From the UHGV virus genome UHGV-0156413: a stretch of 16,142 bases of DNA, one strand, 5' to 3'. The notes under the pieces are model-generated. The model worked only from the letters and a program-made list of their open reading frames with translations, ran no database searches and had not been told where the DNA came from. This DNA comes from a virus. Numbering within the stretch: the first letter of the stretch is position 1; every line of letters begins with the position of its first letter. Below are positions 1 through 16,142 of this stretch, piece by piece. A program made the translations under genes and the position numbers.

Positions 1-49
1 TACAATGCGGGTTTGAGCGGCATAAATTACCACTGAAAGCCCTTAAACG

Positions 50-1063
50 TTACTCTACTGTGGACACTGTGTGGACACTCTCGGCCTCAGTACCACCTCT
101 TAGCGGATTAAGAGAAATGGCGTCCTGAAGGTACTCTGGCGCAAAATGAGCGTAAACCATAGTTTGCTCAATCCGCGTGTGACCTAGTATCCGTTGTAGC
201 GTGATAATACTTCCTCCATTAATCATGAAATGAGTGGCAAAGCTGTGCCTTAGTGCATGTGTGGCTTGCCCCATTGGCAAATCCGGTTTTATTGCTTTCA
301 TTGTTCGTCTGAAGCGAGGGTAATCAGCATCAGGGAATAAAAAACCTCGTTTGTTATCCGCGATCATTTTGGCAACAGCCTCTGAGATCGGGACGGTGCG
401 TGGTTTGTTTGTTTTCGTTTTAACAAACGTGACGCGGTTATGGATGATATTTTCTGCTTTCAAACGAGCTGCTTCTCCCCAACGTGCTCCAGTACTCAGG
501 CAAAGAATCGCAATCTTTTTGTTGTCGCCGTCAAGAGCAGCAAGCAGTAAGGCAATTTCTTCCTGCGTGAGATAGCCTGTGTCTGGTTTTTCCTCCTTAA
601 GCCTTTTTGTCCCTCTGATAGGGTGCTCACCAAAGAATAACTCCGCTTCAATCAGGGCTGTAAACATGCCGCTAATACATGTTAAATCACGATTGATACT
701 CGAAGGTTTAATACCCTGACTTCTTCGGGTGGCGCAGTACTGGCTGATAAGCGATTTCGTAATTTGAAATGCGCATGGGTCATTCGTTATTTTTGTGAAG
801 ATTTCAATTTTTCCAAGATTAGATTTCCCATGCTCTTCGTGTTTACCCTTTAAATCCCACCAGATCTGTGTCAGCTCCGACAGACGTCGCTTGTCTGTTG
901 GTTTTGATAGCCATTCTTTATTGTGGTGGTTGTACAACGTGTATTTCTCGAAAGCGACAGCTTCGCTTTTCTTATCAAACTTCCTACGGATGCGTTTTCC
1001 ATTACGTCCAGTAGGGCGGATGTCCACTTCATATCGACCATCATCGAGTTTTTTGATTGCCAT
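50..1063 (-). CDS. int: Tyrosine site-specific integrase (P2 Int-like)
   Basis: 337-aa ORF; C-terminal region HALRHSFATHFMINGG...LGHTRIEQTMVYAH fits the tyrosine-recombinase catalytic signature. Lies downstream of the repressor on the same strand, as in P2. No att core recognised in nt 1-49. Confidence 0.93.
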   Translation of the reverse strand: MAIKKLDDGRYEVDIRPTGRNGKRIRRKFDKKSEAVAFEKYTLYNHHNKEWLSKPTDKRRLSELTQIWWDLKGKHEEHGKSNLGKIEIFTKITNDPCAFQITKSLISQYCATRRSQGIKPSSINRDLTCISGMFTALIEAELFFGEHPIRGTKRLKEEKPDTGYLTQEEIALLLAALDGDNKKIAILCLSTGARWGEAARLKAENIIHNRVTFVKTKTNKPRTVPISEAVAKMIADNKRGFLFPDADYPRFRRTMKAIKPDLPMGQATHALRHSFATHFMINGGSIITLQRILGHTRIEQTMVYAHFAPEYLQDAISLNPLRGGTEAESVHTVSTVE

Positions 1064-1178
1064 CAGAAAACCCTCCGAGTGGTGTGTTTTTTTGCGACTA
1101 CTAATCGCTTTTTTCGTGGTGGCTCAAATTTAGCCACCAATAGTAGGCACTTGTGATGAATATATTCACGATGAATTG

Positions 1179-1478
1179 TTAACCAGTCTTTTGACCGGAG
1201 TGGGGCGACGTTGTTTCGTTTTGCCCAAAGTGTGCGAGAGCGGGCGCAATTTGCCCGGACTCAGGAGCGATCTGATTGGTCATGAACCATAAAGTGTATT
1301 TGGTGAATTGTGGGGTCTGCAGGATGTTCATCATGACATCTGTTGGAGGTGTTGAACGACCACTTTCATAGTAACTCAGCGTGCCATACGGAACCCCTGT
1401 TAAATCAGCAAGTTGTTGTCTGCTCAAATACTCTGATTTTCGCATTAAGACTATCTTCTCGCTTATCGTGTTTGACAT
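1179..1478 (-). CDS. C: Immunity repressor (P2 C-like, helix-turn-helix)
   Basis: 99-aa ORF with N-terminal HTH-like segment (LSRQQLADLTGVPYGTLSYYESG); divergent from cox and upstream of int, the P2 arrangement. Length matches P2 C as I recall it. Confidence 0.88.
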   Translation of the reverse strand: MSNTISEKIVLMRKSEYLSRQQLADLTGVPYGTLSYYESGRSTPPTDVMMNILQTPQFTKYTLWFMTNQIAPESGQIAPALAHFGQNETTSPHSGQKTG

Positions 1479-1592
1479 GGTGTTTAGATCTCAATAGTAT
1501 TTAGTTTAGATGTAGATTGTTTAGTGCTTGGATGTGGGCACTAAAAGGCATTATAAGACATTAAACGCAATTCATGAGGGCTAGAGGACGAC
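1479..1592. promoter_or_regulatory. Lysogeny/lytic switch region between C and cox (expected repressor and early promoters plus operators)
   Basis: 114-bp AT-rich spacer between divergent C and cox; direct repeats GTTTAGATGT (1504-1513) and GTTTAGTGCT (1519-1528) are candidate repressor half-sites. Exact promoters not resolved. Confidence 0.5.
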
Positions 1593-1868
1593 ATGAGCAA
1601 GCAAGTAACACTCATGACTGATGCGATTCCTTATCAGGAGTTCGCAAAACTAATAGGAAAATCGACAGGAGCGGTTCGTCGGATGATCGATAAAGGAAAG
1701 CTGCCTGTAATTGATATGACCGATCCACAATCAGCTTCAGGTCGTGCAGGTGAATATTGGGTATACCTTCCGGCATGGAATAACGGACTAAAACTGGCTT
1801 ATGAAAGCCGCCCTAAAGAGATTCGTGACGGCTGGTTGATGTGGTTAGGTCTCGGTGAACCACGTTAA
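1593..1868 (+). CDS. cox: Cox-like excisionase / early-operon regulator
   Basis: 91-aa ORF, first gene rightward of the switch, opposite to C. Size and position match P2 Cox; start codon preceded by GAGG. Confidence 0.88.
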   Translation: MSKQVTLMTDAIPYQEFAKLIGKSTGAVRRMIDKGKLPVIDMTDPQSASGRAGEYWVYLPAWNNGLKLAYESRPKEIRDGWLMWLGLGEPR

Positions 1869-1878
1869 GGAGAACCGT

Positions 1879-2049
1879 ATGAATGAGCCTCGTTGTATTG
1901 CTCAGTTACTGCGTAACGAAAGCCCCAGGGCGATTGACTTCACCATCACCCACGGTAAGGGGCGTAAGGGAATCATTATCCGCACCAAAAAACAGAGTCC
2001 GTTAAAAAAGGCTCTGACCTTTCTGAAAAGCCGGAGGGTATGGAAATGA
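1879..2049 (+). CDS. Small early-operon hypothetical protein
   Basis: Internal ATG at 1879 preceded by AAGGAG (about 1865-1870); basic 56-aa product; sits between cox and B where P2 has a small ORF. Function unknown. Confidence 0.45.
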   Translation: MNEPRCIAQLLRNESPRAIDFTITHGKGRKGIIIRTKKQSPLKKALTFLKSRRVWK

Positions 2050-2546
2050 CAGTGATGACGCTCAATCTCGTTGAAAAACAGCCAGCAGCTATGCGCCGGA
2101 TAATTGGCAAGCATCTTGCCGTCCCTCGCTGGCAGGATACATGTGATTATTATAATCAGATGATGGAGCGCGAACGGCTAACGGTTTGCTTTCATGCACA
2201 GTTAAAACAGCGTCACGCAACGATGCGTTTTGAAGAAATGAACGACGTCGAACGTGAACGACTGGTTTGTGCAATTGATGAATTGCGTGGCGCATTCTCA
2301 AAACGCCGTCAGGTTGGTGCAAGTGAGTATGCATATATTAGTTTTTTAACAGTCAGTCAGCGTCGCACTTTATTTATGCACGCACGACTGACTGAAAAAG
2401 AATTCAACCAGCCATACTGGCGAATTAATGAAGAATCATGTTACTGGCGTGATGCTTTGTTCCGTGCATTACGTGAATTATTCAGTCTGTTTGAGTATGC
2501 ACCGACAATTCTGACGTCGGTAAAACCAGAGCAATATCTGCATTAA
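2046..2546 (+). CDS. B: Replication protein B (helicase-loader-like, P2 gpB-like)
   Basis: ORF in the P2 B position; start at 2046 (MTVMTLNLVEK...) preferred over 2040 on Shine-Dalgarno spacing (GGAGGG at about 2029-2034). Length close to P2 B as recalled. Confidence 0.85.
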   Translation: MTVMTLNLVEKQPAAMRRIIGKHLAVPRWQDTCDYYNQMMERERLTVCFHAQLKQRHATMRFEEMNDVERERLVCAIDELRGAFSKRRQVGASEYAYISFLTVSQRRTLFMHARLTEKEFNQPYWRINEESCYWRDALFRALRELFSLFEYAPTILTSVKPEQYLH

Positions 2547-2567
2547 ATAATTAACCAGAGTTTTTAA

Positions 2568-2595
2568 CGCACTTAATCGTGCGGGGCTTCTTTTT
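2568..2595 (+). terminator. Weak hairpin plus T-run between B and the next ORF (possible attenuator/terminator)
   Basis: Stem CGCAC (2568-2572) / GTGCG (2579-2583), loop TTAATC, followed by GGGCTTCTTTTT. Short stem, so weak. Confidence 0.25.
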
Positions 2596-2609
2596 GCCTG
2601 GAGAAAGTC

Positions 2610-2834
2610 ATGCATACAGTTTCTGAAAATCAGTGCGGTATATACGCATTACTGCTGCAACAGGCCAGAACCGAAGCACAGGCCGACGCTGCGACGCGCT
2701 TTTCTTCTCATCTTGACGCCATGATTCGCCACATCACAAAGGCGGAGTTATCCCGCGTGGAGATAGTCGAGCTGCTCAGTCAGGAGTCGGAAAAATTTCA
2801 CAATATCGGATTGTCTCGCGGGAAGGTGCTTTGA
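2610..2834 (+). CDS. Hypothetical early protein (P2 orf80 position)
   Basis: 74-aa ORF with GGAGA upstream of ATG; stop overlaps next start (ATGA), suggesting translational coupling. Confidence 0.6.
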
Positions 2835-3136
2835 TGTCCTGTTCTCATTCAGTTGTATTACTGAATAACGCCTTAAAAATCGCCGTTATGAAAAATGGCG
2901 ATTTGTCTCTTATTCAACTTTGTCTTGATAAAGAAAAACGCGACATAACTGAATCTGTTATCGCGATTTATCAGAATGAATTAAACCTCCTGTCTGATGT
3001 GGTCAATTTACTTGTTAAACGCGCTGTATTCCACAAGCAAATTTCATCCGTGGATGAGCTGACAAAATTAACGACAGAAATCGCCAGCTATTGCGCTGAT
3101 GAATTCAAGAAACTGAACGATAAAAGGAGCTGGTAA
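2831..3136 (+). CDS. Hypothetical early protein (P2 orf81 position)
   Basis: 101-aa ORF, start overlapping upstream stop, same strand and operon context. Confidence 0.6.
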
Positions 3137-3360
3137 TGCCGGACAACGTAGATTTTATTCAGGAACAACAGGCTGAATTACTGGAGCGCCAGATTAACGC
3201 GGCAAGGGTAAAACATTGCGGTGTTTCTTCGCTGGTTTGCGAAGAGTGTGATGCGCCAATACCTGCTGCCCGTCGTGCGGCTTATCCGTCAGCCACGCGT
3301 TGTGTTTCCTGTCAGTCAGTCTTTGAAGCAAAAAACAAACATTACCGGAGAACGGCATGA
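3136..3360 (+). CDS. DksA/TraR-type C4 zinc-finger protein (P2 orf82 position)
   Basis: 74-aa ORF with C-x2-C-x17-C-x2-C (CEEC...CVSC), typical of TraR/DksA-family zinc fingers in phage early operons. Confidence 0.7.
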   Translation: MPDNVDFIQEQQAELLERQINAARVKHCGVSSLVCEECDAPIPAARRAAYPSATRCVSCQSVFEAKNKHYRRTA

Positions 3361-3632
3361 GTATTCGTATTGAAATTGGCGAACGTTATGTCGTTACCAG
3401 TGACAGCTTTCAGTTTATTCTCCACGAGAAAAAGAGAGCGGAAAGCGGTAAAAACGCCGGTCAGGAATGGCTGTCGGTGGTTGGTTATTACCCGAAATTA
3501 AGCCAGCTCGTTTCCGGCCTGATGCATCACGATATTCTGACCGGAAGCGCAAAGTCTTTTGCTGATTTAAACGCGCAGGTTGAGCAACTCAGCAAGCGTT
3601 GTTCAGAGGTTTTTGGCTCATATGGCAGTTAA
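3357..3632 (+). CDS. Hypothetical early protein (P2 orf83 position)
   Basis: 91-aa ORF, start overlaps upstream stop; its 3' end overlaps the start of A. Confidence 0.6.
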   Translation: MSIRIEIGERYVVTSDSFQFILHEKKRAESGKNAGQEWLSVVGYYPKLSQLVSGLMHHDILTGSAKSFADLNAQVEQLSKRCSEVFGSYGS

Positions 3633-5898
3633 AGCCTCCGGGCGTTGTGTCCCTCCGTCAGCATTTGCCGCAGGCACCGGTAAGACGTTTACCGGTGCTT
3701 ATGCATGGAACGCGCCACGCGAGGCCGTCGGGCGCGAAAGACCCCTTACACGTGACGAGATGCGTCAGGTGCAAGGTGTTTTATCCACGATTAACCGCCT
3801 GCCTTACTTTTTGCGCTCGCTGTTTACTTCACGCTATGACTACATCCGGCGCAATAAAAGCCCGGTGCACGGGTTTTATTTCCTCACATCCACTTTTCAG
3901 CGTCGTTTATGGCCGCGCATTGAGCGTGTGAATCAGCGCCATGAAATGAACACCGACGCGTCGTTACTGTTTCTGGCAGAGCGTGACCACTATGCGCGCC
4001 TGCCTGGAATGAATGACAAGGAGCTGAAAAAGTTTGCTGCCCGTATCTCATCGCAGCTTTTCATGATGTATGAGGAACTCAGCGATGCCTGGGTGGATGC
4101 GCATGGCGAAAAAGAATCGCTGTTTACGGATGAGGCGCAGGCTCACCTGTATGGTCATGTTGCTGGCGCTGCACGTGCTTTCAATATTTCCCCTCTCTAC
4201 TGGAAAAAATACCGTAAAGGGCAGATGACCACGAGGCAGGCATATTCTGCCATTGCCCGTCTGTTTAACGATGAGTGGTGGACTCATCAGCTTAAAGGCC
4301 AGCGTATGCGCTGGCATGAGGCGTTACTGATTGCTGTCGGGGAGGTCAATAAAGACCGTTCTCCTTATGCCAGTAAACATGCCATTCGTGATGTGCGCGC
4401 GCGCCGCCAGGCAAATCTGGAATTTCTTAAATCGTGTGACCTTGAAAACAGGGAAACCGGCGAACGCATCGACCTTATCAGTAAGGTTATGGGCAGTATT
4501 TCTAATCCAGAAATTCGCCGGATGGAGCTGATGAACACCATTGCCGGTATTGAGCGTTACGCCGCCGCAGAGGGTGATGTGGGGATGTTTATCACGCTGA
4601 CCGCGCCGTCAAAGTATCACCCGACACGTCAGGTCGGAAAAGGCGAAAGTAAAGCCGTCCAGCTAAATCACGGCTGGAACGATGAGGCATTTAATCCAAA
4701 GGATGCGCAGCGTTATCTCTGCCGCATCTGGAGCCTGATGCGCACGGCATTCAAGGATAATGATTTACAGGTCTACGGTTTGCGTGTCGTCGAGCCACAC
4801 CACGACGGAACGCCGCACTGGCATATGATGCTTTTTTGTAATCCACGCCAGCGTAACCAGATTATTGAAATCATGCGTCGCTACGCGCTCAAAGAGGATG
4901 GCGACGAAAGAGGAGCTGCGCGAAACCGTTTTCAGGCAAAACATCTTAACCGGGGCGGTGCTGCGGGATATATCGCGAAATACATTTCAAAAAACATCGA
5001 CGGCTATGCACTGGATGGTCAGCTCGATAACGACACCGGCAGGCCGCTGAAAGACACTGCAGCGGCTGTTACCGCATGGGCGTCAACGTGGCGCATCCCG
5101 CAATTTAAAACGGTTGGCCTGCCGACAATGGGGGCTTACCGTGAACTACGCAAATTGCCTCGCGGCGTCAGCATTGCTGATGAGTTTGACGAACGCGTTG
5201 AGGCTGCACGTGCCGCCGCAGACAGTGGTGATTTTGCGTTGTATATCAGCGCACAGGGTGGGGCAAATGTTCCGCGTGATTGCCAGACTGTCAGAGTCGC
5301 CCGTAGCCCGTCGGATGACGTTAACGAGTACGAGGAAGAAGTCGAGAGAGTGGTCGGCATTTACGCGCCGCATCTCGGCGCGCGTCATATTCATATCACC
5401 AGAACGACGGACTGGCGCATTGTGCCGAAAGTTCCGGTCGTTGAGCCTTTGACTTTAAAAAGCGGCATCGCCGCGCCTCGGAGTCCTGTCAATAACTGTG
5501 GAAAGCTCACCGGTGGTGATACTTCGTTACCGGCTCCCACACCTTCTGAGCACGCCGCAGCAGTGCTTAATCTGGTTGATGACGGTGTTATCGAATGGAA
5601 TGACACGGAGGTCGTGAGGGCGCTCAGGGGGGCATTAAAACACGACCTGAGAACACCAAATCGTCAGCAAAGAAACGGAAGCCCGTTAAAACCACATGAA
5701 ATTGCACCATCGGCCAGACTGACCCGGTCGGAAAGAATGCAAATTACCCGTATCCGCGTTGACCTTGCTCAGAACGGTATCAGGCCGCAGCGATGGGAGC
5801 TTGAGGCGCTGGCGCGTGGCGCGACCGTAAATTATTACGGGAAATCTTTCAATTATCAGGTCGCTGATGAGTGGCCTGGATTTTTGTTACCCATTTGA
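3622..5898 (+). CDS. A: Rolling-circle replication initiator (P2 gpA-like HUH endonuclease)
   Basis: Start taken at ATG 3622 (MAVKASG...) rather than the upstream ORF-track start. Contains HUH-like motif PHWHMMLF and tyrosine motif GYIAKYISKNIDGY typical of Rep/gpA nickases. Confidence 0.9.
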   Translation: MAVKASGRCVPPSAFAAGTGKTFTGAYAWNAPREAVGRERPLTRDEMRQVQGVLSTINRLPYFLRSLFTSRYDYIRRNKSPVHGFYFLTSTFQRRLWPRIERVNQRHEMNTDASLLFLAERDHYARLPGMNDKELKKFAARISSQLFMMYEELSDAWVDAHGEKESLFTDEAQAHLYGHVAGAARAFNISPLYWKKYRKGQMTTRQAYSAIARLFNDEWWTHQLKGQRMRWHEALLIAVGEVNKDRSPYASKHAIRDVRARRQANLEFLKSCDLENRETGERIDLISKVMGSISNPEIRRMELMNTIAGIERYAAAEGDVGMFITLTAPSKYHPTRQVGKGESKAVQLNHGWNDEAFNPKDAQRYLCRIWSLMRTAFKDNDLQVYGLRVVEPHHDGTPHWHMMLFCNPRQRNQIIEIMRRYALKEDGDERGAARNRFQAKHLNRGGAAGYIAKYISKNIDGYALDGQLDNDTGRPLKDTAAAVTAWASTWRIPQFKTVGLPTMGAYRELRKLPRGVSIADEFDERVEAARAAADSGDFALYISAQGGANVPRDCQTVRVARSPSDDVNEYEEEVERVVGIYAPHLGARHIHITRTTDWRIVPKVPVVEPLTLKSGIAAPRSPVNNCGKLTGGDTSLPAPTPSEHAAAVLNLVDDGVIEWNDTEVVRALRGALKHDLRTPNRQQRNGSPLKPHEIAPSARLTRSERMQITRIRVDLAQNGIRPQRWELEALARGATVNYYGKSFNYQVADEWPGFLLPI

Positions 5899-6158
5899 GT
5901 GAAAATGCAGCGTGATTTTATATGCCTTTGAATGGATTATGCGAAGCGCCTCTAAGGCAGATGAGGAGCAATAGCATGCTGAAGTAGAAGGCTAAATTGT
6001 ATTGAATCGCTAGCATGTAATTTAAGGCAGCTATTTGATTCGAGTCATAAAAGAGCATCTATTTCGGCTAATAAAACCATTGCGAGTGACCTTTTGTCGA
6101 AGCATAATTCATCTCGAGCGAAGTCTTGCTAGTCTTTCATCGGAATGATGACAGGCGC

Positions 6159-6188
6159 AAAAAAACCACCCTGGCAGGTGGTTTTTTT
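6159..6188. terminator. Bidirectional rho-independent terminator
   Basis: A7-CCACC (6159-6170), loop CTGGCA, GGTGG-T7 (6177-6188): GC stem flanked by an A-run and a T-run, so a U-tract follows the hairpin in either orientation. Lies downstream of A and just 3' of the minus-strand small ORF. Confidence 0.6.
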
Positions 6189-6200
6189 GTTTGAAGCATA

Positions 6201-6314
6201 CTAAAGAATAATACTTACATGGATATTACTGACGTTTACTGACAAACCACTTGGACTACCATATGGATAGCCAAAGAGGGCCAGAACGAGAATGCAGTAA
6301 TAGCACTTCTTCAT
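6201..6314 (-). CDS. Putative small hydrophobic peptide (37 aa; not in the ORF track)
   Basis: Minus-strand ATG at 6314-6312 preceded by CAGGAGGAGAT; translation MKKCYYCILVLALFGYPYGSPSGLSVNVSNIHVSIIL then stop; terminator immediately 3'. No homology assessed. Confidence 0.3.
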   Translation of the reverse strand: MKKCYYCILVLALFGYPYGSPSGLSVNVSNIHVSIIL

Positions 6315-6884
6315 ATCTCCTCCTGTAAGCAGAGGGCAATTTCCGCCGATATATGCGCTTCTAAGGCGGAGTTAATATTTAGCGAAGTCTTGCCCTGAAA
6401 TAATGCTCTGTTTAAACGCAAAGTGATCTGGCATATCACCGAACAGAGAGCCTGAACAACACAACATATAGTATGTCGTTGTTTCTGGTTGCATTTTATG
6501 TTGTGTAATACTGGTTTTGCATCAAGGATGTTTGAGCTTTTTTTGATATAGCTCAAAGTAAAAAGCAGGGACTACGGATGATAAGGTATTGAAAGCAATG
6601 TAAATTTTTTAAAGTTATTGGTGGCTAAAAAATGCACGATTTCAATGTGGCGGACTTAAATAAGCAATTAAAAAAGTCATAAATATCACTAAAATCATGG
6701 TGTTACGTTTTTTGTGGGAGCTGCGGTGACGCTTAAGTTGATTTGTCATTAAATAAGCCGTGCATGCAACAAGTGAATGTTTTTGCATGCGTCGGGGATG
6801 CCCGTTCCCGCTGCTTGCGGTCAGAGCTGGTGCGGATCCATAGTATCTATGCAACTGCATTAAAACCGCCACATGAAGCGGGCG

Positions 6885-6903
6885 GGCGAGGCGGGGAAAG
6901 CAC
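6885..6903. other. Putative cos site (19-nt cohesive-end sequence of P2-type phages)
   Basis: GGCGAGGCGGGGAAAGCAC at 6885-6903 matches the P2 cohesive-end sequence as I recall it; sits between A and Q as expected for a circularly permuted prophage. Memory-based, not searched. Confidence 0.55.
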
Positions 6904-6939
6904 CGCGCGTAAGATAAACAGAAGAGCGAAGGATTATGG

Positions 6940-6968
6940 TTGAGTATTTGTGTTTTTGTACATATGAT
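6940..6968 (+). promoter_or_regulatory. Candidate sigma70 promoter for the cargo operon
   Basis: TTGAGT (6940-6945), 17-bp spacer, TATGAT (6963-6968); followed by inverted repeat GTGTTT...AAACAC (about 6975-6997) and a GGAG Shine-Dalgarno before ATG 7010. Confidence 0.3.
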
Positions 6969-7009
6969 AAAAAGGTGTTTACGCTTAAAAACACATCAAA
7001 GGAGATGAT

Positions 7010-8311
7010 ATGGAAAATATAAAGATTGATAAGTTTCTCACTATTCAAAAAGTTGATATTCCTCTTAAGAAAGTGAATATATTTATTGGGCCTCAGGCAC
7101 AGGGGAAAAGTGTCATTGCAAAGCTAATAAAATATTTTAAAGATTATCCTATGGATATACTACGAGCTTCAACAGAGGGTAAAACTAAAAGAGATATATT
7201 GAAGGAGCAAAAGAATAAGTTTAGTAAAATTTTCCCTCAGCAGTATTGGGCTGATGATGAGTTTTTTATTGAGTATAGTAATAAGCACTATTGGGTGCGG
7301 ATTACTAATCGAAAAAATAGCAAAGGGTCATTGAAAATAGCCCTTTCTGAGAATTTAACGAAGACGATTGCTAAACTTCGTTTGATTGTACGAAAGGATT
7401 TAGATGAAAATATTGAGAATTCACTTGCAGAAAGCGTTACGAGAAGGCGTAAACGCGGAATTGAACATGAATTGCGAGTATGTCTTTCTCTAGGATTGTT
7501 TTCAGAACCAGAAACAAAGCTTGAAAGTGTTTTTTATATCCCCGCAGGGCGCTCTTTTTTTGCTAATTTGCAAAAAAATGTGTTTTCATTTTTATCCAGT
7601 AGTATAGAAATTGACTACTTTTTGACAGAGTTTGGTTCTCTGTATGAACAAACAAAAAAATTATTTAACCAAGATTACATGATTAGGATGCTTAGGGGGG
7701 CTGTGCCTCAACATGTTAATAAACTTGTGGAGGAGTTGATTTGCGGAAAATATATAACAGAAAAGGGTGAGGATTTTATTCGTCATGCTGCTAAGAAGAC
7801 GAATCTTAACAACTCGAGCTCAGGGCAGCAAGAAGCGTTACCAATGGCTTTAATGTTATCCTCATGGCCGTATTTACAGTCTATGACTAGTAAGAGTTTT
7901 ATTATTGAGGAGCCGGAGGCTCATCTGTTTCCTTCTGCCCAAGCAAAAGTTGTATCTTTAATAGCCTCAGCGTATAACCAAGCAGAAAGCTATTGTAGCT
8001 ATACAATAACAACACATAGTCCATATATTCTAAGTGCCTTCAATAATTTGATTCAAGCAGGTAATGCATTGAAGTGTATTAAGGGCAAGAATAATACCGA
8101 TATCGAACGCTTATATAAGCTTGTTCCAGAGTCTCAAATTATTGATTTTGATGATGTGACAGCTTATATGGTTAATGCTGGGAAAGTGACGGAAATACTG
8201 GATTCCGAACTAAATATATTAGATGCGAATGAAATAGATAGGATTTCCTCTATTTTTTCAGAGACTTTTGATGCATTGATTGATATCGAATATTCGGCTA
8301 CTGTGAATTAG
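7010..8311 (+). CDS. ABC-type ATPase of the AAA_21/OLD-like family (candidate defence ATPase)
   Basis: 433 aa. Walker A GPQAQGKS (aa 27-34), signature-like SSGQQ (aa 269-273), Walker B/D-loop FIIEEPEAHLFP (aa 297-308), H-loop TTHSP (aa 334-338). AT-rich codon usage unlike the phage backbone. Confidence 0.85.
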   Translation: MENIKIDKFLTIQKVDIPLKKVNIFIGPQAQGKSVIAKLIKYFKDYPMDILRASTEGKTKRDILKEQKNKFSKIFPQQYWADDEFFIEYSNKHYWVRITNRKNSKGSLKIALSENLTKTIAKLRLIVRKDLDENIENSLAESVTRRRKRGIEHELRVCLSLGLFSEPETKLESVFYIPAGRSFFANLQKNVFSFLSSSIEIDYFLTEFGSLYEQTKKLFNQDYMIRMLRGAVPQHVNKLVEELICGKYITEKGEDFIRHAAKKTNLNNSSSGQQEALPMALMLSSWPYLQSMTSKSFIIEEPEAHLFPSAQAKVVSLIASAYNQAESYCSYTITTHSPYILSAFNNLIQAGNALKCIKGKNNTDIERLYKLVPESQIIDFDDVTAYMVNAGKVTEILDSELNILDANEIDRISSIFSETFDALIDIEYSATVN

Positions 8312-8319
8312 GTGATTGA

Positions 8320-8757
8320 ATGTGTAAAAATTGCAAAGGAAAAACAAAAAATAAAATCATTGTGCTATCTGATAAAGGAACGTCAACGCAATTGTCAGTC
8401 ACAAATGATAATGAGTTGGAAGTTGAGCATAAGTTAATAGATGGTTGCGCTATTGTTGTTGGAGAGCGGTGTGATCATTATTTGAAGATTTATAACAATC
8501 AGGATGTTTCACATCTTTTTGTTGAACTTAAAGGAAGTGATGTTGAAAAAGCTGTTAAACAGATAGTGACAACTTTAAAGTCAGGTGTGATTAATGTAGG
8601 TGCTAAAGAAAAAAAACATGGTGCTATTGTTAGCACTAGGAATCCGCTAAACTCACCAGAAACCAATAGGTTAAAGAAGAAAATTCTTTTGAGTGACGGA
8701 GTGAATTTGCATTTCTATAAAATGAAGGCGCAGCAAAAAATAACTTCTTTTACATGA
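8320..8757 (+). CDS. Small partner protein, possible PD-(D/E)xK-like nuclease or effector (hypothetical)
   Basis: 145 aa; starts 8 bp after the ATPase stop with AGGTGA upstream. N-terminal CxxC (C2, C5); candidate catalytic core D52 ... E69-L-K71 (ERCDH ... FVELKG). Assignment is tentative. Confidence 0.7.
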   Translation: MCKNCKGKTKNKIIVLSDKGTSTQLSVTNDNELEVEHKLIDGCAIVVGERCDHYLKIYNNQDVSHLFVELKGSDVEKAVKQIVTTLKSGVINVGAKEKKHGAIVSTRNPLNSPETNRLKKKILLSDGVNLHFYKMKAQQKITSFT

Positions 8758-8770
8758 AGTGTTCTCTTGT

Positions 8771-8794
8771 ACAGGCATGCATTTGCATGCCTGT
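8771..8794. terminator. Perfect palindrome between convergent cargo operon and Q (terminator or protein-binding site)
   Basis: ACAGGCATGCA tt TGCATGCCTGT (11-bp arms); a short T-run (ATCTTTTA) follows about 8 nt downstream on the plus strand. Confidence 0.35.
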
Positions 8795-8860
8795 CGTGTA
8801 ATCTTTTACACTATATTTGTGTTGGTTCTAATCTTGTTATGTGTTTGTTTCGGTGATGGG

Positions 8861-9880
8861 TCATAATGAATAAGTTCGAAAGCGAAATACATCTTCGCCA
8901 ACCCAACAGTTAATTTCTTTACATCGCTCTTGGAGGAACGTTAGCTCGTTGCGTACAAAGACTTGTGCTGCTTTTGTTACATCTCCAAATCCTCCTGTGT
9001 TGTTGGGCATCATTCCTATCATTTGGGGAGGCACGCGATGAGCACTCATTAGATCTTCAGCACTTGCTTTTTTGATATTAAAAAAATCGTCCTTCGTTGC
9101 CACTTCACTGAGCGGGATAATTTTAATGCCGTCGGCTTTCCCCTGCGGGGCATAGAGAAACAGATTTTTAAAGTTATTGCGGCCTTTCGACTTAACCATG
9201 TTTTCGCGAAGCATTTCGATATCGTTGCGATCCTGCACGGCATCAGTGACGTACATGATGTATCCGGCATGAGCGCCGTTTTCGTAATACTTGCGGCGGA
9301 ACAGCGTGGCCGACTCATTCAGCCAGGCAGAGTTAAGGGCGCTGAGATATTCGGGCAGGCCGTACAGCTCCTGATTAATATCCGGCTCCAGCAGGTGAAA
9401 CACGGAACCGGGCGCGAAGGCTGTCGGCTCGTTGAAGGACGGCACCCACCAGTAAACATCCTCTTCCACACCACGGCGGGTATATTTTGCCGGTGAGGTT
9501 TCCAGCCTGATAACTTTACCGGTGGTGCTGTAACGCTTTTCCAGAAACGCATTACCGAACACCAGAAAATCCAGCACAAAGCGGCTGAAATCCTGCTGGG
9601 AAAGCCACGGATGCGGGATAAATGTCGAGGCCAGAATATTGCGTTTGACGTAAATCGGCGAGCTGTGATGCACGGCAGCACGCAGGCTTTTTGCCAGACC
9701 GGTAAAGCTGACCGGCGGCTCATACCATCTGCCGTTACTGATGCACTCGACGTAATCCAGAATGTCACGGCGGTCGAGTACCGGCACCGGCTCACCAAAG
9801 GTGAATGCTTCCATTTTCGGGGCGCTGGCGGTGATTGTTTTTGCCGCAGGTCGCGGTGTTTTCCCTTTTTTCTTGCTCAT
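8861..9880 (-). CDS. Q: Portal protein (P2 gpQ-like)
   Basis: 339-aa ORF immediately downstream of and overlapping the large-terminase stop (ATGA); conserved P2 Q-P arrangement; size close to P2 Q as recalled. Confidence 0.9.
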   Translation of the reverse strand: MSKKKGKTPRPAAKTITASAPKMEAFTFGEPVPVLDRRDILDYVECISNGRWYEPPVSFTGLAKSLRAAVHHSSPIYVKRNILASTFIPHPWLSQQDFSRFVLDFLVFGNAFLEKRYSTTGKVIRLETSPAKYTRRGVEEDVYWWVPSFNEPTAFAPGSVFHLLEPDINQELYGLPEYLSALNSAWLNESATLFRRKYYENGAHAGYIMYVTDAVQDRNDIEMLRENMVKSKGRNNFKNLFLYAPQGKADGIKIIPLSEVATKDDFFNIKKASAEDLMSAHRVPPQMIGMMPNNTGGFGDVTKAAQVFVRNELTFLQERCKEINCWVGEDVFRFRTYSL

Positions 9881-11292
9881 CAGTAAAACTCCAGAATGGT
9901 GGATGTCAGCGGAGTGCTGATACCGGCGGTGAGTGGCTCATTTAACAGGGCGTGCATGGTTGCCCAGGCGAGGTCGGCGTGGCTGGCTTCCTCGCTGCGG
10001 CTGGCCTCATAGGTGGCGCTGCGTCCGCTGCTGGTCATGGTCTTGCGGATAGCCATGAACGAGCTGGTGATGTCGGTGGCGCTGACGTCATATTCCAGAC
10101 AGCCACGGCGGATGACGTCTTTGGCCTTGAGCACCATTGCGGTTTTCATTTCCGGCGTGTAGCGGATATCGCGCGCGGCGGGATAGAACGAGCGCACGAG
10201 CTGGAACACGCCGACACCGAGGCCGGTGGCATCAATACCGATGTATTCGACGTTGTATTTTTCGGTGAGTTTGCGGATGGACTCCGCCTGGGTGGCAAAG
10301 TCCATGCCTTTCCACTGGTGACGCTCAAGTATTCTGAATTTGCCACCGGCCACCACCGGCGGTGCCAGCACCACGCATCCGGCGCTGTCGCCACGGTGTG
10401 ACGGGTCGTAACCAATCCATACCGGGCGGGAGCCGAACGGATTTGCGGCAAACGGCGCGTAGTCTTCCCATTCTTCCAGCGTGTCGACCATGCAGCGTTG
10501 CAGCTCCTCGAACGGGAACACCGATGCCTTGTCGTCAACAAATTCACACATGAACAGGTTTTTAAAATCGTCGGCGCTGTTTTCGCGTTTGAGCTGCTCA
10601 ATGTCGAACAATGTGCAGCCGCCTTTCAGGGCGTCCTCAATGGTGACAATCTGCCGCCACTGGCCGTCCGCACAGAGAAGACCACCGGCAAGGGCGTTAT
10701 GACTGACGTCGATTTCCACACGTTCGGCGGCGCTGGCGCGTCCCCGGTTGAACAGTTCACCCGACCAGAACGGGTAGGCGTCGTGCGCCAGTGTGGACGG
10801 GGTGGAGAAATAGGTCGAGCGCAGGTGACTCTGTGAGGCCATACCTGATGCCACCTTACGCAGTACCTGAAAATTCGGGATCCAGAAAATCTCGTCGACG
10901 TACAGGTCGCCGTTATGGCTCTGTGCGGTGTTGGAGTTGGTGCCGAGAAAAATCAGTTTTGCGCCGTTATTGCCCAGGACAATCGGGTCACCGGTCAGGT
11001 CAACGTCAACCAGCCGGGCAAAGGCGATGATGTATTCGCGGAACACATACGCCTGCGTTTTACTGGCCGACAGAAAAATCTGGTTATGACCGGTTTTCAG
11101 GGCGCGCAGCAGCGCCTCGCGGGAAAAATAAAACGTCGCGCCAATCTGGCGGGATTTCAGGATATCGCGGATGCGGTGCTCAAGCCCGGCGCGATACCAG
11201 TGCAACTGATATTCGAAAGACTGCTCAAAGAAAATCTGCTCCAGCTTTTCGATGGCCTCGTCACTGAAAAAATTCTTTTTCGGTTTGCCGCA
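9880..11292 (-). pseudogene. P: Large terminase subunit (P2 gpP-like), 5'-truncated
   Basis: Reading frame open from 11292 down to 9880 (about 470 codons) with no in-frame ATG at its 5' end; the frame runs straight into the opposite-strand O remnant. Contains deviant Walker-A-like KSRQIGAT. P2 P is about 590 aa as recalled. Confidence 0.7.
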
Positions 11293-12017
11293 TTAACCTG
11301 GAACATCTGCGCGGCATCCTGCCTGACGGTATTTTTAAGCGTTATGGCGATGTGGTCGAACTGAAGGCCGAAAAGATTGACGATGATTCGGCGCTGAAAG
11401 GCAAATGGGCGCTGTTTGCGAAAATCACCCCGACCGATGACCTTATCGCGATGAACAAGGCCGCGCAGAAGGTCTATACCTCAATGGAAATTCAGCCGAA
11501 CTTTGCCAATACCGGCAAATGTTATCTGGTGGGTCTGGCCGTCACCGATGACCCGGCAAGCCTCGGCACGGAATACCTGGAATTCTGCCGCACGGCAAAA
11601 CACAACCCCCTGAACCGCTTCAAATTAAGCCCTGAAAACCTGATTTCAGTGGCAACGCCTGTTGAGCTGGAATTTGAAGACCTGCCTGAAACCGTGTTCA
11701 CCGCCCTGACCGAAAAGGTGAAATCCATTTTTGGCCGCAAACAGGCCAGCGATGACGCCCGTCTGAATGACGTGCATGAAGCGGTGACCGCTGTCGCTGA
11801 ACATGTGCAGGAAAAACTGAGCGCCACTGAGCAGCGCCTCGCTGAGATGGAAACTGCCTTTTCCGCTCTTAAGCAGGAGGTGACTGACAGGGCGGATGAA
11901 ACCAGCCAGGCATTCACCCGCCTGAAAAACAGTCTCGACAGCACCGAAAGTCTGACCCAGCAGCGCCGCAGCAAGGCCACCGGTGGTAGCGGTGACGCCC
12001 TGATGACGAACTGCTGA
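11268..12017 (+). pseudogene. O: Capsid scaffold protein (P2 gpO-like), 5'-truncated
   Basis: Frame open from 11268 (just after an in-frame TGA at 11265-11267) with no ATG before GTG 11352; N-terminal residues of the P2 O protein (about 284 aa as recalled) are absent. Confidence 0.7.
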
Positions 12018-12075
12018 CCGGCGTCAGCCAGTCCGGGCAAACCTTCACGATTAACCCTTAATTTCAGGAAAAACT

Positions 12076-13149
12076 ATGCGCCAGGAAACCCGCTTTAAAT
12101 TTAATGCCTACCTGTCCCGTGTTGCCGAACTGAACGGCATCGACGCCGGTGATGTGTCGAAAAAATTCACCGTTGAACCGTCGGTCACCCAGACCCTGAT
12201 GAACACCATGCAGGAGTCCTCTGATTTTCTGACCCGCATCAACATTGTGCCGGTCAGCGAAATGAAAGGGGAAAAAATTGGTATTGGTGTCACCGGCTCC
12301 ATCGCCAGCACCACCGACACCGCCGGTGGCACCGAGCGTCAGCCGAAGGACTTCTCGAAGCTGGCGTCAAACAAGTACGAATGCGACCAGATTAACTTCG
12401 ATTTTTATATCCGCTACAAAACTCTTGACCTGTGGGCGCGTTATCAGGATTTCCAGCTCCGTGTCCGTAACGCCATTATCAAACGCCAGTCCCTTGATTT
12501 AATCATGGCCGGTTTTAACGGCGTGAGGCGTGCCGAAACCTCTGACCGCAGCAGCAATCCGATGCTGCAGGATGTGGCGGTCGGCTGGCTGCAGAAATAC
12601 CGCAATGAAGCACCGGCGCGCGTGATGAGCAAGGTCACTGACGAGGAAGGTCACACGACCTCTGAGGTCATCCGCGTGGGTAAGGGCGGTGATTATGCCA
12701 GCCTTGATGCACTGGTGATGGATGCGACCAACAACCTGATTGAGCCGTGGTATCAGGAAGACCCTGACCTTGTGGTGATTGTGGGGCGTCAGCTACTGGC
12801 GGACAAGTATTTTCCCATCGTCAACAAGGAGCAGGACAACAGCGAAATGCTGGCCGCTGACGTCATCATCAGCCAGAAACGCATCGGCAACCTGCCAGCG
12901 GTACGCGTCCCGTACTTCCCGGCGGATGCGATGCTCATCACGAAGCTGGAAAACCTGTCCATCTACTACATGGATGACAGCCATCGCCGCGTGATTGAGG
13001 AAAACCCGAAACTCGACCGTGTGGAGAACTACGAGTCAATGAACATTGATTACGTGGTGGAGGACTACGCCGCCGGTTGTCTGGTGGAAAAAATTAAGGT
13101 CGGTGATTTCTCCACACCGGCTAAAGCGACCGCAGAGCCGGGAGCGTAA
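12076..13149 (+). CDS. N: Major capsid protein (P2 gpN-like)
   Basis: 357-aa ORF in the conserved O-N-M-L order; length equals P2 N as recalled; AGGA Shine-Dalgarno upstream. Confidence 0.93.
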   Translation: MRQETRFKFNAYLSRVAELNGIDAGDVSKKFTVEPSVTQTLMNTMQESSDFLTRINIVPVSEMKGEKIGIGVTGSIASTTDTAGGTERQPKDFSKLASNKYECDQINFDFYIRYKTLDLWARYQDFQLRVRNAIIKRQSLDLIMAGFNGVRRAETSDRSSNPMLQDVAVGWLQKYRNEAPARVMSKVTDEEGHTTSEVIRVGKGGDYASLDALVMDATNNLIEPWYQEDPDLVVIVGRQLLADKYFPIVNKEQDNSEMLAADVIISQKRIGNLPAVRVPYFPADAMLITKLENLSIYYMDDSHRRVIEENPKLDRVENYESMNIDYVVEDYAAGCLVEKIKVGDFSTPAKATAEPGA

Positions 13150-13152
13150 CCG

Positions 13153-13896
13153 ATGACGAGTCCCGCACAGCGCCACATGATGCGGGTCTCGGCAGCGATG
13201 ACCGCTCAGCGGGACGCCGCCCCGCTGCGACATGCAACTGTCTATGAGCAGATGCTGGTTAAGCTGGCCGCAGACCAGCGCACACTGAAAGCGATTTATT
13301 CAAAAGAGCTGAAGGCCGCAAAAAAACGCGAACTGCTGCCGTTCTGGTTGCCGTGGGTGAACGGCGTGCTGGAGCAGGGCAAAGGTGCACAGGATGACAT
13401 TCTGATGACGGTCATGCTGTGGCGTCTGGATACCGGCGATATTGCCGGTGCGCTGGAGATTGCCCGTTATGCCCTGAAGTACGGTCTGACCATGCCGGGT
13501 AAACACCGCCGTACCCCGCCGTACATGTTCACCGAGGAGGTAGCGCTTGCGGCCATGCGCGCTCACGCTGCCGGTGAGTCTGTGGATACCCGCCTGCTGA
13601 CGGACACCCTTGAACTGACCGCCACGGCTGACATGCCTGATGAAGTGCGCGCAAAGCTGCACAAAATCACCGGTCTGTTTCTGCGTGACGCCGGTGATGC
13701 CGCCGGTGCGCTGGCGCACCTGCAACGTGCGACACAGCTCGACTGTCAGGCAGGCGTCAAAAAAGAGATTGAACGACTGGAGCGGGAGCTGAAACCGAAG
13801 CCGGAGCCGCAGCCCAAAGCGGCCACCCGCGCCCCGCGTAAGACACGGAGCGTGACACCGGCAAAACGTGGACGCCCGAAAAAGAAAGCCAGTTAA
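13153..13896 (+). CDS. M: Small terminase / endonuclease subunit (P2 gpM-like)
   Basis: 247-aa ORF starting 4 bp after N; basic proline/lysine-rich C-terminal tail; position and size match P2 M. Confidence 0.88.
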   Translation: MTSPAQRHMMRVSAAMTAQRDAAPLRHATVYEQMLVKLAADQRTLKAIYSKELKAAKKRELLPFWLPWVNGVLEQGKGAQDDILMTVMLWRLDTGDIAGALEIARYALKYGLTMPGKHRRTPPYMFTEEVALAAMRAHAAGESVDTRLLTDTLELTATADMPDEVRAKLHKITGLFLRDAGDAAGALAHLQRATQLDCQAGVKKEIERLERELKPKPEPQPKAATRAPRKTRSVTPAKRGRPKKKAS

Positions 13897-13995
13897 CAAC
13901 CGAATGCGCCCCGCGCCAGGGCGGCACGCCGGTCAGTGAGGGTGAATCACCTGACACTGCACCGGCGTCCACCGCCCGACTTTTCAGAGGTAGTC

Positions 13996-14505
13996 ATGAT
14001 GACGCTGATTATTCCGCGAAAGGAGGCTCCCGTGTCCGGTGAGGGTACGGTGGTCATCCCGCAACCGGCAGGCGACGAGCCGGTGATTAAAAACACGTTC
14101 TTTTTTCCCGATATCGACCCGAAGCGCGTCCGGGAACGTATGCGCCTTGAGCAGACCGTCGCCCCCGCCCGTCTGCGTGAGGCCATCAAGTCAGGCATGG
14201 CGGAGACGAATGCGGAGCTGTACGAGTACCGCGAACAGAAAATTGCTGCCGGTTTTACGCGTCTGGCGGACGTCCCGGCGGACGACATCGACGGTGAAAG
14301 CATCAAAGTTTTTTACTACGAGCGCGCCGTGTGTGCGATGGCGACCGCATCGCTTTATGAGCGTTATCGCGGCGTGGATGCCAGTGCCAAGGGCGACAAG
14401 AAGGCCGACAGCATTGACAGCACCATTGATGAACTGTGGCGGGATATGCGCTGGGCGGTGGCACGTATCCAGGACAAGCCGCGCTGCATCGTGAGTCAAA
14501 TCTGA
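13996..14505 (+). CDS. L: Head completion/stabilisation protein (P2 gpL-like)
   Basis: Start taken at ATG 13996 (MMTLIIPRKEAP...) with GAGG upstream rather than the longer ORF-track start; 169 aa; about 99 bp gap after M as in P2. Confidence 0.88.
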   Translation: MMTLIIPRKEAPVSGEGTVVIPQPAGDEPVIKNTFFFPDIDPKRVRERMRLEQTVAPARLREAIKSGMAETNAELYEYREQKIAAGFTRLADVPADDIDGESIKVFYYERAVCAMATASLYERYRGVDASAKGDKKADSIDSTIDELWRDMRWAVARIQDKPRCIVSQI

Positions 14506-14708
14506 TGAAGACCTTTGCGCTACAGGGCGACACGCTCGACGCCATTTGTGTCCGGTATTACGGGCGCACTGAGGGCGTGGTTGAGACCGTGCTCGCCGCA
14601 AATCCGGGACTGGCTGAACTGGGTGCGATGCTGCCGCACGGCACCGCCGTCGAACTGCCCGATGTTCAGACCGCGCCCGTGGCTGAAACTGTCAATCTGT
14701 GGGAGTAA
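14505..14708 (+). CDS. X: Tail protein X (P2 gpX-like)
   Basis: 67-aa product from ATG 14505 (MKTFALQGDTLDAICVRYYG...), start overlapping the L stop; size matches P2 X. Confidence 0.8.
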   Translation: MKTFALQGDTLDAICVRYYGRTEGVVETVLAANPGLAELGAMLPHGTAVELPDVQTAPVAETVNLWE

Positions 14709-14711
14709 CGC

Positions 14712-15026
14712 ATGACAGCAGAAGAAAAAAGCGTTCTGTCGCTTTTCATGATTGGAGTGCTGATTGTTGTCGGCAAGGTGCTTGCCGGTGGTGAAACCAT
14801 CACCCCGCGTCTGTTTATCGGGCGCATGTTGCTCGGTGGTTTTGTCTCGATGGTTGCCGGTGTTGTTCTGGTGCAGTTTCCTGACCTGTCACTGCCTGCG
14901 GTGTGCGGCATCGGCTCCATGCTGGGTACCACTGAGCGCAGTTTTGACGGGCGAATGACGGTCACGTTAACCGGCCAGCACAACGACACCGGCCAGCCAC
15001 TTTCGTTAACCATCCCTGTGAGTTGA
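14712..15026 (+). pseudogene. Y: Holin-like ORF (P2 gpY-like N-terminus) with an unrelated hydrophilic C-terminus; probable deletion fusion
   Basis: First about 72 aa contain two clear hydrophobic transmembrane-like segments; after ...GIGSMLG the sequence becomes hydrophilic and the ORF ends 5 bp before J. Confidence 0.55.
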
Positions 15027-15030
15027 AACC

Positions 15031-15939
15031 ATGCCGATTATCGACCTGAACCAGCTACCCGCACCGGATGTGGTCGAGGAGCTGGACTTTGAAAGCATTC
15101 TCGCTGAACGCAAGGCGACACTGATTTCCCTTTACCCGGAAGATCAGCAGGAGGCGGTCGCCCGTACCCTGACACTGGAATCTGAGCCTCTCGTCAAACT
15201 GCTGGAAGAAAATGCTTATCGTGAGCTTATCTGGCGTCAGCGTGTGAATGAGGCCGCACGGGCGGTGATGCTGGCCTGTGCCGCCGGTAATGACCTTGAT
15301 GTGATTGGTGCCAATTACAACACCACGCGCCTGACTATCACCCCGGCAGATGATTCGACCATTCCGCCGACACCGGCAGTGATGGAATCTGACACCGATT
15401 ATCGTCTGCGTATTCAGCAGGCTTTTGAGGGCTTAAGCGTCGCCGGGTCAGTGGGAGCCTATCAGTATCATGGTCGCAGTGCTGACGGGCGTGTCGCGGA
15501 TATTTCTGTCACCAGTCCGTCTCCTGCCTGTGTCACCATCTCTGTGCTGTCACGTGAAAATAACGGTGTGGCATCCGAAGACCTGCTGGCTGTGGTGCGT
15601 AACGCCCTTAATGGCGAGGACGTCAGGCCGGTGGCTGACCGTGTGACCGTGCAGTCTGCCGCCATTGTTGAATACCAGATAAACGCCACGCTGTATCTTT
15701 ACCCTGGTCCCGAAAGCGAACCCATCCGCGCTGCCGCTGTGAAAAAGCTGGAAGCGTATATCACGGCACAGCACCGGCTGGGGCGCGACATCCGTCTGTC
15801 TGCCATTTATGCCGCTTTGCATGTGGAAGGTGTGCAGCGTGTCGAACTGGCTGCACCACTGGCCGACATCGTGCTCAACAGTACGCAGGCGTCTTTCTGT
15901 ACCGAATACCGCGTCGTGACCGGAGGCTCGGATGAGTGA
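15031..15939 (+). CDS. J: Baseplate assembly protein J (P2 gpJ-like)
   Basis: 302-aa ORF, length as recalled for P2 J; followed by an overlapping start for the next tail gene. Confidence 0.85.
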   Translation: MPIIDLNQLPAPDVVEELDFESILAERKATLISLYPEDQQEAVARTLTLESEPLVKLLEENAYRELIWRQRVNEAARAVMLACAAGNDLDVIGANYNTTRLTITPADDSTIPPTPAVMESDTDYRLRIQQAFEGLSVAGSVGAYQYHGRSADGRVADISVTSPSPACVTISVLSRENNGVASEDLLAVVRNALNGEDVRPVADRVTVQSAAIVEYQINATLYLYPGPESEPIRAAAVKKLEAYITAQHRLGRDIRLSAIYAALHVEGVQRVELAAPLADIVLNSTQASFCTEYRVVTGGSDE

Positions 15940-16142
15940 TTCGCGACTGCTGCCGACCGGCTCATCACCGCTTGAGGTCGCCGCCGCAAAAGCCTGTGCG
16001 GAAATTGAAAAAACGCCGGTCAGTATTCGTGAGCTGTGGAACCCGGACACCTGTCCGGCAAATCTGCTGCCGTGGCTGGCGTGGGCGTTTTCGGTCGACA
16101 GGTGGGATGAAAAGTGGCCGGAAGCGACAAAACGCGCCGTTA
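15932..16142 (+). CDS. I: Baseplate/tail protein I (P2 gpI-like), 5' part only (runs off the window)
   Basis: ATG at 15932 overlaps the J stop; open frame to the window end (MSDSRLLPTGSSPLEVAAAKACAEIEK...). Confidence 0.75.
   Translation, partial: MSDSRLLPTGSSPLEVAAAKACAEIEKTPVSIRELWNPDTCPANLLPWLAWAFSVDRWDEKWPEATKRAV

Follow-up and report, generated by a model that had tools for sequence, protein, structure and literature searches.

The P-O junction of the prophage described here very probably marks a recent and genuine deletion of 663 bp in a P2-like element, which inactivates the large-terminase gene P and the scaffold/protease gene O and removes the Ogr-dependent bidirectional promoter shared by the two operons. 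The event appears to be recent, since no other gap or frameshift relative to P2 was found between positions 9060 and 14928 and the divergence from intact siblings is only 0.02%. A second deletion, from Y to W, lies further to the right. The element is thus a prophage with more than one inactivating lesion, still early in its decay, in which the remaining genes are all intact while essential genes are truncated by comparison with near-identical, intact relatives. The allele is private, and it belongs to a familiar class, that of P2-like prophages inactivated by deletion in the course of ordinary prophage decay.

The window, by which we mean the whole stretch of 16,142 nt that was analysed, corresponds to the 3'-most part (positions 62,261-78,402) of an E. 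coli-like contig, NODE_144_length_78402_cov_13.87, from the ENA metagenome assembly ERZ773458. The assembly was produced with SPAdes, with a coverage of approximately 14x (cov 13.87) for this contig, which stops inside the prophage at window position 16142. The window begins 49 nt beyond the int stop codon, and approximately 62 kb of further contig DNA is present upstream of int. The cos site is internal, as expected of an integrated prophage. Together with the location of the siblings beside yegR, these observations suggest that the element is integrated in the host chromosome. The gene order, established from the ORF map, Pfam matches and colinear alignment to P2 (NC_001895) and vB_EcoM-720R8, is that of P2 in the prophage permutation (int-C-cox-B-A ... 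cos ... Q-P / O-N-M-L-X-Y ... J-I). The assignment to the P2-like phages (Peduovirus) is supported by 97.6-97.9% identity to NC_001895 over 5.9 kb. No Rfam match was found in the window. The features are the following:

50-1063, minus strand: int (ORF map and Pfam), followed by C, cox, B and accessory genes
3622-5898: A (ORF map and Pfam)
6885-6903, plus strand: cos, the exact 19-nt P2 cohesive-end sequence (exact match, 0 expected by chance)
7010-8311 and 8320-8757: two-gene cargo (ORF map)
8861-9880, minus strand: portal gene Q, 339 aa, intact
9880-11288, minus strand (open frame to 11292): truncated large-terminase gene P', approximately codons 122-590 kept
11285-11288, no strand: deletion junction with TTGC microhomology (alignment to P2)
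11289-12017, plus strand (open frame from 11268): truncated scaffold/protease gene O', codons 42-284 kept
12076-13149, plus strand: N, intact, gapless relative to P2
13153-13896, plus strand: M, intact, gapless relative to P2
13996-14505, plus strand: L, intact, gapless relative to P2
14505-14708, plus strand: X, intact, gapless relative to P2
14712-15026, plus strand: in-frame fusion ORF of 104 aa, Y(1-72)::W(84-115), produced by the second deletion, junction at 14928
15031-15939: J, followed by the start of I (ORF map)

Three segments on the left side of this map differ from P2. Between A and cos (5900-6885), approximately 1 kb of AT-rich DNA (27-45% GC) contains no ORF longer than 81 aa, at a site occupied in P2 by accessory genes of the tin/old type. 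This stretch is present at approximately 99% identity in E24377A and other E. coli genomes, where it is unannotated, and it has no Rfam match. Between cos and the 3' end of Q, the cargo (7010-8757) encodes a 433-aa ATPase (AAA_15/AAA_21) and a 145-aa protein with no Pfam match. In PADLOC, the pair is matched best by PDC-M29, a candidate defence system (A: E = 2.3e-31; B: E = 2.4e-4), with further hits to models of AriA-like and GajA-like ATPases. The cargo is also found in the sibling prophages and in E24377A. Finally, Q encodes 339 aa compared to 344 aa in P2. As the similarity to P2 ends at window position 9060 (P2 401), the C-terminus of Q and the region towards cos constitute a different mosaic module, common to the siblings.

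To the right of this point, two gapless blocks were observed: window 9060-11288 corresponds to P2 401-2629, and window 11285-14928 to P2 3289-6932. The alignment to the P and O region of P2, which the first-pass annotation had proposed as a check, shows a clean deletion of exactly 663 bp with its breakpoint at 11285-11288/11289. The two parental breakpoints (P2 2626-2629 and 3289-3292) share the 4 nt TTGC, which in the window lies at 11285-11288 within an imperfect GGTT(T)GC. Identical breakpoints were obtained by local BLAST against fiAA91-ss and L-413C, window 9800-11288 corresponding to locus positions 1001-2489 and window 11285-12100 to positions 3149-3964. Of the missing 663 bp, P contributes 364 nt (121.3 codons), the intergenic sequence 173 nt and O 122 nt (40.7 codons); one copy of TTGC accounts for the remaining 4 nt. 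The initial estimate by comparison with P2, of roughly 120 codons of P and 40 codons of O, is thus in agreement with the alignments to P2 and to the intact sibling L015. Illegitimate recombination mediated by microhomology, between two copies of TTGC that lay 663 bp apart, is the probable mechanism.

The layout of the reading frames at the junction is as first described. The P frame is closed by a TTA on the plus strand (TAA on the minus strand) at 11293-11295, the open O frame is preceded by a TGA at 11265-11267, and the two frames, reported as meeting within approximately 25 bp, overlap at 11268-11292. The observation that neither frame possesses a canonical start also holds. The first possible initiation codons in frame with the truncated P are a TTG (11205) and an ATG (10842), those in frame with the truncated O a GTG (11352) and an ATG (11451); in both frames, no in-frame start codon with a Shine-Dalgarno or other recognisable ribosome-binding site was found. 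A simple scan detected no sigma-70-like promoter around the new junction. No terminator able to stop plus-strand read-through into O' was detected by a simple scan of the interval separating the cargo from Q, so that weak read-through transcription of O'-N-M-L is possible.

The window gpA is found unchanged on many E. coli contigs. At seven of the ten gpA loci listed, the prophage adjoins yegR and encodes a P of 590 aa, an O of 284 aa, a 93-aa holin and K. Five of these siblings (L015, L016, L017, L020 and L021), with identical gpA, were compared with the window and showed 99.97-99.99% identity over positions 1-14928, with 1-4 mismatches over 1-11288, 1-2 mismatches over 11285-14928 and an extra 663 bp between the two blocks. 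All five possess a P of 590 aa, a 173-bp intergenic region and an O of 284 aa. The E. coli prophages L015 (GCA_043776995.1), L021 (GCA_020873395.1) and L020 (GCA_013063265.1), located beside yegR, share with the window the cargo, the 339-aa Q and the gene order, and differ from it by the presence of the 663 bp and of the full-length 93-aa holin gene followed by K. When the 663 nt were excised in silico from L015, window 1-14928 was recreated with 3 mismatches in 14,928 nt, which shows that the deletion is not a chance pattern.

The content of the lost segment can be read from the P2 annotation, in which P occupies 1221-2993 on the minus strand, the P-operon transcription start is at 3016, a single activator-binding site at 3057-3087 serves both pO and pP, the transcription start of the O operon (O, N, M, L, X, Y, K, lysA, lysB, R, S) is at 3127 and O occupies 3167-4021. 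The pP start, the shared activator site and the pO start are all inside the deleted interval, P2 2630-3288. These annotations can be transferred to the lineage of the window, because the intergenic region of L015 is identical to that of P2 over 173 of 173 positions. The proposal that the divergent late promoters had been lost together with both 5' ends is therefore supported. Q (8861-9880), the gene that follows P in the pP operon, has lost its late promoter, and N, M, L and X, the rest of the O operon, are left without pO. What is known of P2 suggests that Ogr would no longer switch on either the P-Q operon or the O-N-M-L-X-(Y...) operon.

The proteins themselves are also affected, as the deletion takes gpP codons 1-121, the whole 173-bp divergent control region and gpO codons 1-41, leaving P' and O' each devoid of start codon, ribosome-binding site and promoter. 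The lost part of gpP contains the Terminase_5/HTH domain (residues 12-69 of 590 aa; Pfam), and P' keeps the Terminase_6N ATPase and Terminase_6C nuclease domains. What gpO has lost is the beginning of its N-terminal protease domain, with Asp19. We take the catalytic triad of gpO to be Asp19, His48 and Ser107; the sibling gpO carries D at position 19 and H at position 48. In O', the match to Phage_GPO (Pfam) starts at profile position 37, positions 1-36 being lost. Residues 1-141 of gpO constitute the maturation protease and residues 195-284 the scaffold; the protein is essential, and the S107A mutant is protease-deficient (PMC7552001). The 590-aa gpP with its Terminase_5 domain, the 284-aa gpO, and pP and pO with their shared activator site, all expected of a functional phage, are absent from the window. 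From the known essential roles of the two proteins, the absence of functional gpP and gpO would prevent both procapsid assembly and DNA packaging.

The second deletion has its junction at window position 14928, where P2 6932 (Y codon 72) is joined to P2 11189 (W codon 84) with an overlap of 1 nt. It corresponds to P2 6933-11188, a loss of 4256 bp by comparison with P2, in which orf30 is present, and of 3390 bp by comparison with vB_EcoM-720R8. K, lysA, lysB, lysC, R, S, the O-operon terminator, V and the 5' part, that is most, of W have disappeared, as well as the pV activator site and the V-operon transcription start (P2 10239-10308). The lysis cassette (Y, K), the tail completion and baseplate genes R, S, V and W, and the pV of a functional phage are consequently not found complete, and the deletion at 14928 independently disables lysis and tail completion. 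With both deletions combined, three of the four late promoters (pP, pO and pV) are gone.

Within the collections searched, the junction allele is private to the ERZ773458 contig. Among 5426 complete E. coli genomes, 1522 gave a match and 1496 hold both flanks of the P-O junction; in all 40 genomes listed of these 1496, the distance between the flanks exceeds that in the window by 663 bp. When an asymmetric query of 159 nt was used, no match crossed the junction in the 1507 matching E. coli genomes, all matches starting at or after query position 20. A 44-nt junction query, whose A/T-rich part the low-complexity filter may have hidden, gave no match in the 5426 complete E. coli genomes or in 50,697 phage records. 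An exact scan for 35 nt of the junction, which copies bearing a SNP would escape, gave zero hits in the GTDB species representatives, IMG/VR and the JGI metagenomes. In the gene-position index, the truncated 221-aa O' product is present on one contig only. The Y'-'W fusion allele was likewise found on the ERZ773458 contig only.

The 441-aa, TTG-initiated P' ORF was rejected as a marker of other carriers of the deletion. The public gene index calls it in 238 blocks, for unrelated reasons, P being split by assorted frameshifts in those assemblies. In the loci L004-L009, nucleotides 26-381 of gene P showed differing indels of 1-2 nt, several of them in a T6 run beside the breakpoint of the window; such P-splitting indels are probably long-read homopolymer errors in some assemblies and real frameshifts in others. 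Among these loci, L007 carries a different deletion, ending at P2 2652.

Other P2-like prophages with incomplete late regions were encountered in the searches with gpA or the cargo. In L014, a sibling, P is joined to H, and in L018, also a sibling, P is joined to J/I. In the defective prophage of E. coli E24377A (L003), located in the pflA-pflB region and 99.5% identical to the window in the cargo region, Q is joined to the tail assembly/E region and an IS21-family insertion is present. In L007, which is a different P2-like prophage, P (P2 2652) is joined to the tube/D region, 23 bp from the breakpoint of the window (2629). These four elements resemble the window in having lost late genes by internal deletion in the same or a related lineage, and differ from it by other breakpoints and much larger deletions. 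Because they were found through gpA or the cargo, the retention of the early or cargo side among them is an ascertainment bias.

It might be argued that both junctions are artefacts of the library or of the assembly, produced by chimeric reads or by a mis-join, and that the real prophage is intact. The P-O junction rests on a single metagenome contig at approximately 14x (cov 13.87) that breaks off within the prophage, and neither junction was seen in any other collection searched. P2-like prophages are so common (1522 of 5426 E. coli genomes) that several variants could coexist in one sample. Against this, the identity shared by the parental ends amounts to only 4 nt (TTGC) at the first junction and 1 nt at the second, and no repeats that could mislead an assembler are present. 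Since de Bruijn assemblers need shared k-mers of tens of bases, repeat collapse would not account for the joins. Moreover, the window runs colinear with the siblings on both sides of the junction, differing at 3 positions in 14.9 kb and showing no signature of a strain switch there, and real, independent late-region deletions with other breakpoints exist in isolate genomes (L014, L018, E24377A and L007). We consider an artefact unlikely.

A second possibility accepts the deletions as real and considers them to have been selected. The prophage would have been domesticated into a helper-dependent element, the deletions being favoured because they silence lethal late functions, through the loss of three of the four late promoters and of lysis, and the host would keep a protective island that a helper could still package. 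The intact state of the immunity gene C, of int and cox, of the replication genes B and A, of cos and of the PDC-M29-like pair with its ATPase fits this scenario, as do the removal of pP, pO and pV together and the independent late-region deletions of L014, L018 and E24377A, in which the early region and the cargo are retained. However, these last elements were recovered by searching for the parts they retain, both alleles of the window are present on one contig only, giving no sign of spread or selection, and neutral deletional decay predicts the same pattern equally well. In addition, hallmarks of satellites such as sid-, psu- or delta-like genes are absent, and N, M, L and Q, which are head genes, have been kept. 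Selected domestication appears improbable. The same holds for the related idea of a selected, 'disarmed' prophage, unable to kill its host and providing a protective island, yet still excisable, replicable and packageable by a P2-like helper; if true, it would represent an early step from a phage towards a satellite-like element. P4-like satellites possess no head or tail genes and encode their own hijacking functions (sid, psu, delta, alpha primase). The window, which keeps Q, N, M, L, X and J in addition to replication genes A and B of the P2 type, is not such a satellite.

The comparison with phage genomes concerns the last alternative. When window 9800-12100 was used as a query, 98 phage records covered at least 80% of it, and the best 25 of these showed a two-piece match spanning 2964 nt instead of the 2301 nt of the window. 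The annotations of fiAA91-ss, L-413C, P2 and vB_EcoM-720R8 give a P of 1773 nt and an O of 855 nt. P2 and its isolated relatives L-413C, fiAA91-ss and Wphi have 97.6-98.4% nucleotide identity to the window across Q-P-O-N-M-L-X; they are functional and possess complete P and O, pP/pO, the lysis cassette and pV, all of which the window is without. P2 shares with the window the exact 19-nt cos, its control region is identical to that of the siblings of the window, and it differs from the window also in the cargo between cos and Q and in the C-terminus of Q. Functional relatives with the same short P and O were looked for and are excluded by the phage and sibling alignments. A natural, compact variant, in which a functional P2-like phage would manage with a short P, a short O and overlapping promoters, can hardly be entertained given these full-length relatives, the wider spacing of the flanks in the E. 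coli genomes listed, the failure of any of the 1507 matching genomes to cross the junction, and the lack at the junction of a start with a ribosome-binding site or of a promoter-like site; nothing was found in its favour, even though P' still has complete ATPase and nuclease domains.

We therefore retain a genuine 663-bp deletion, and ordinary decay, as the explanation of the P-O junction. The prophage should be labelled as defective and its P and O genes treated as pseudogenes, and the ORFs of 441 aa and 221 aa predicted on the contig should not be taken for real short variants of the terminase and the scaffold. Beyond this annotation the finding has little importance, adding one snapshot to the decay series at the cyaR-yegR site. 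At this site, E. coli K-12 (L024, 2,167,183-2,167,811) carries the 629-bp cryptic prophage PR-X, composed of ogrK and the yegZ pseudogene, between cyaR and yegR. PR-X derives from P2 and occupies the chromosomal location where the siblings of the window integrated. It is reduced to a 629-bp remnant, whereas the window has kept most of its genes and shows two internal deletions. PR-X illustrates the end state of the decay of a P2-like prophage, and the window is an early snapshot of the same series. With near-identical intact siblings, two microhomology deletions and no further lesions, the window provides a clean and datable case of early prophage decay, in which the loss of one short segment with a bidirectional control region would shut off two operons together.
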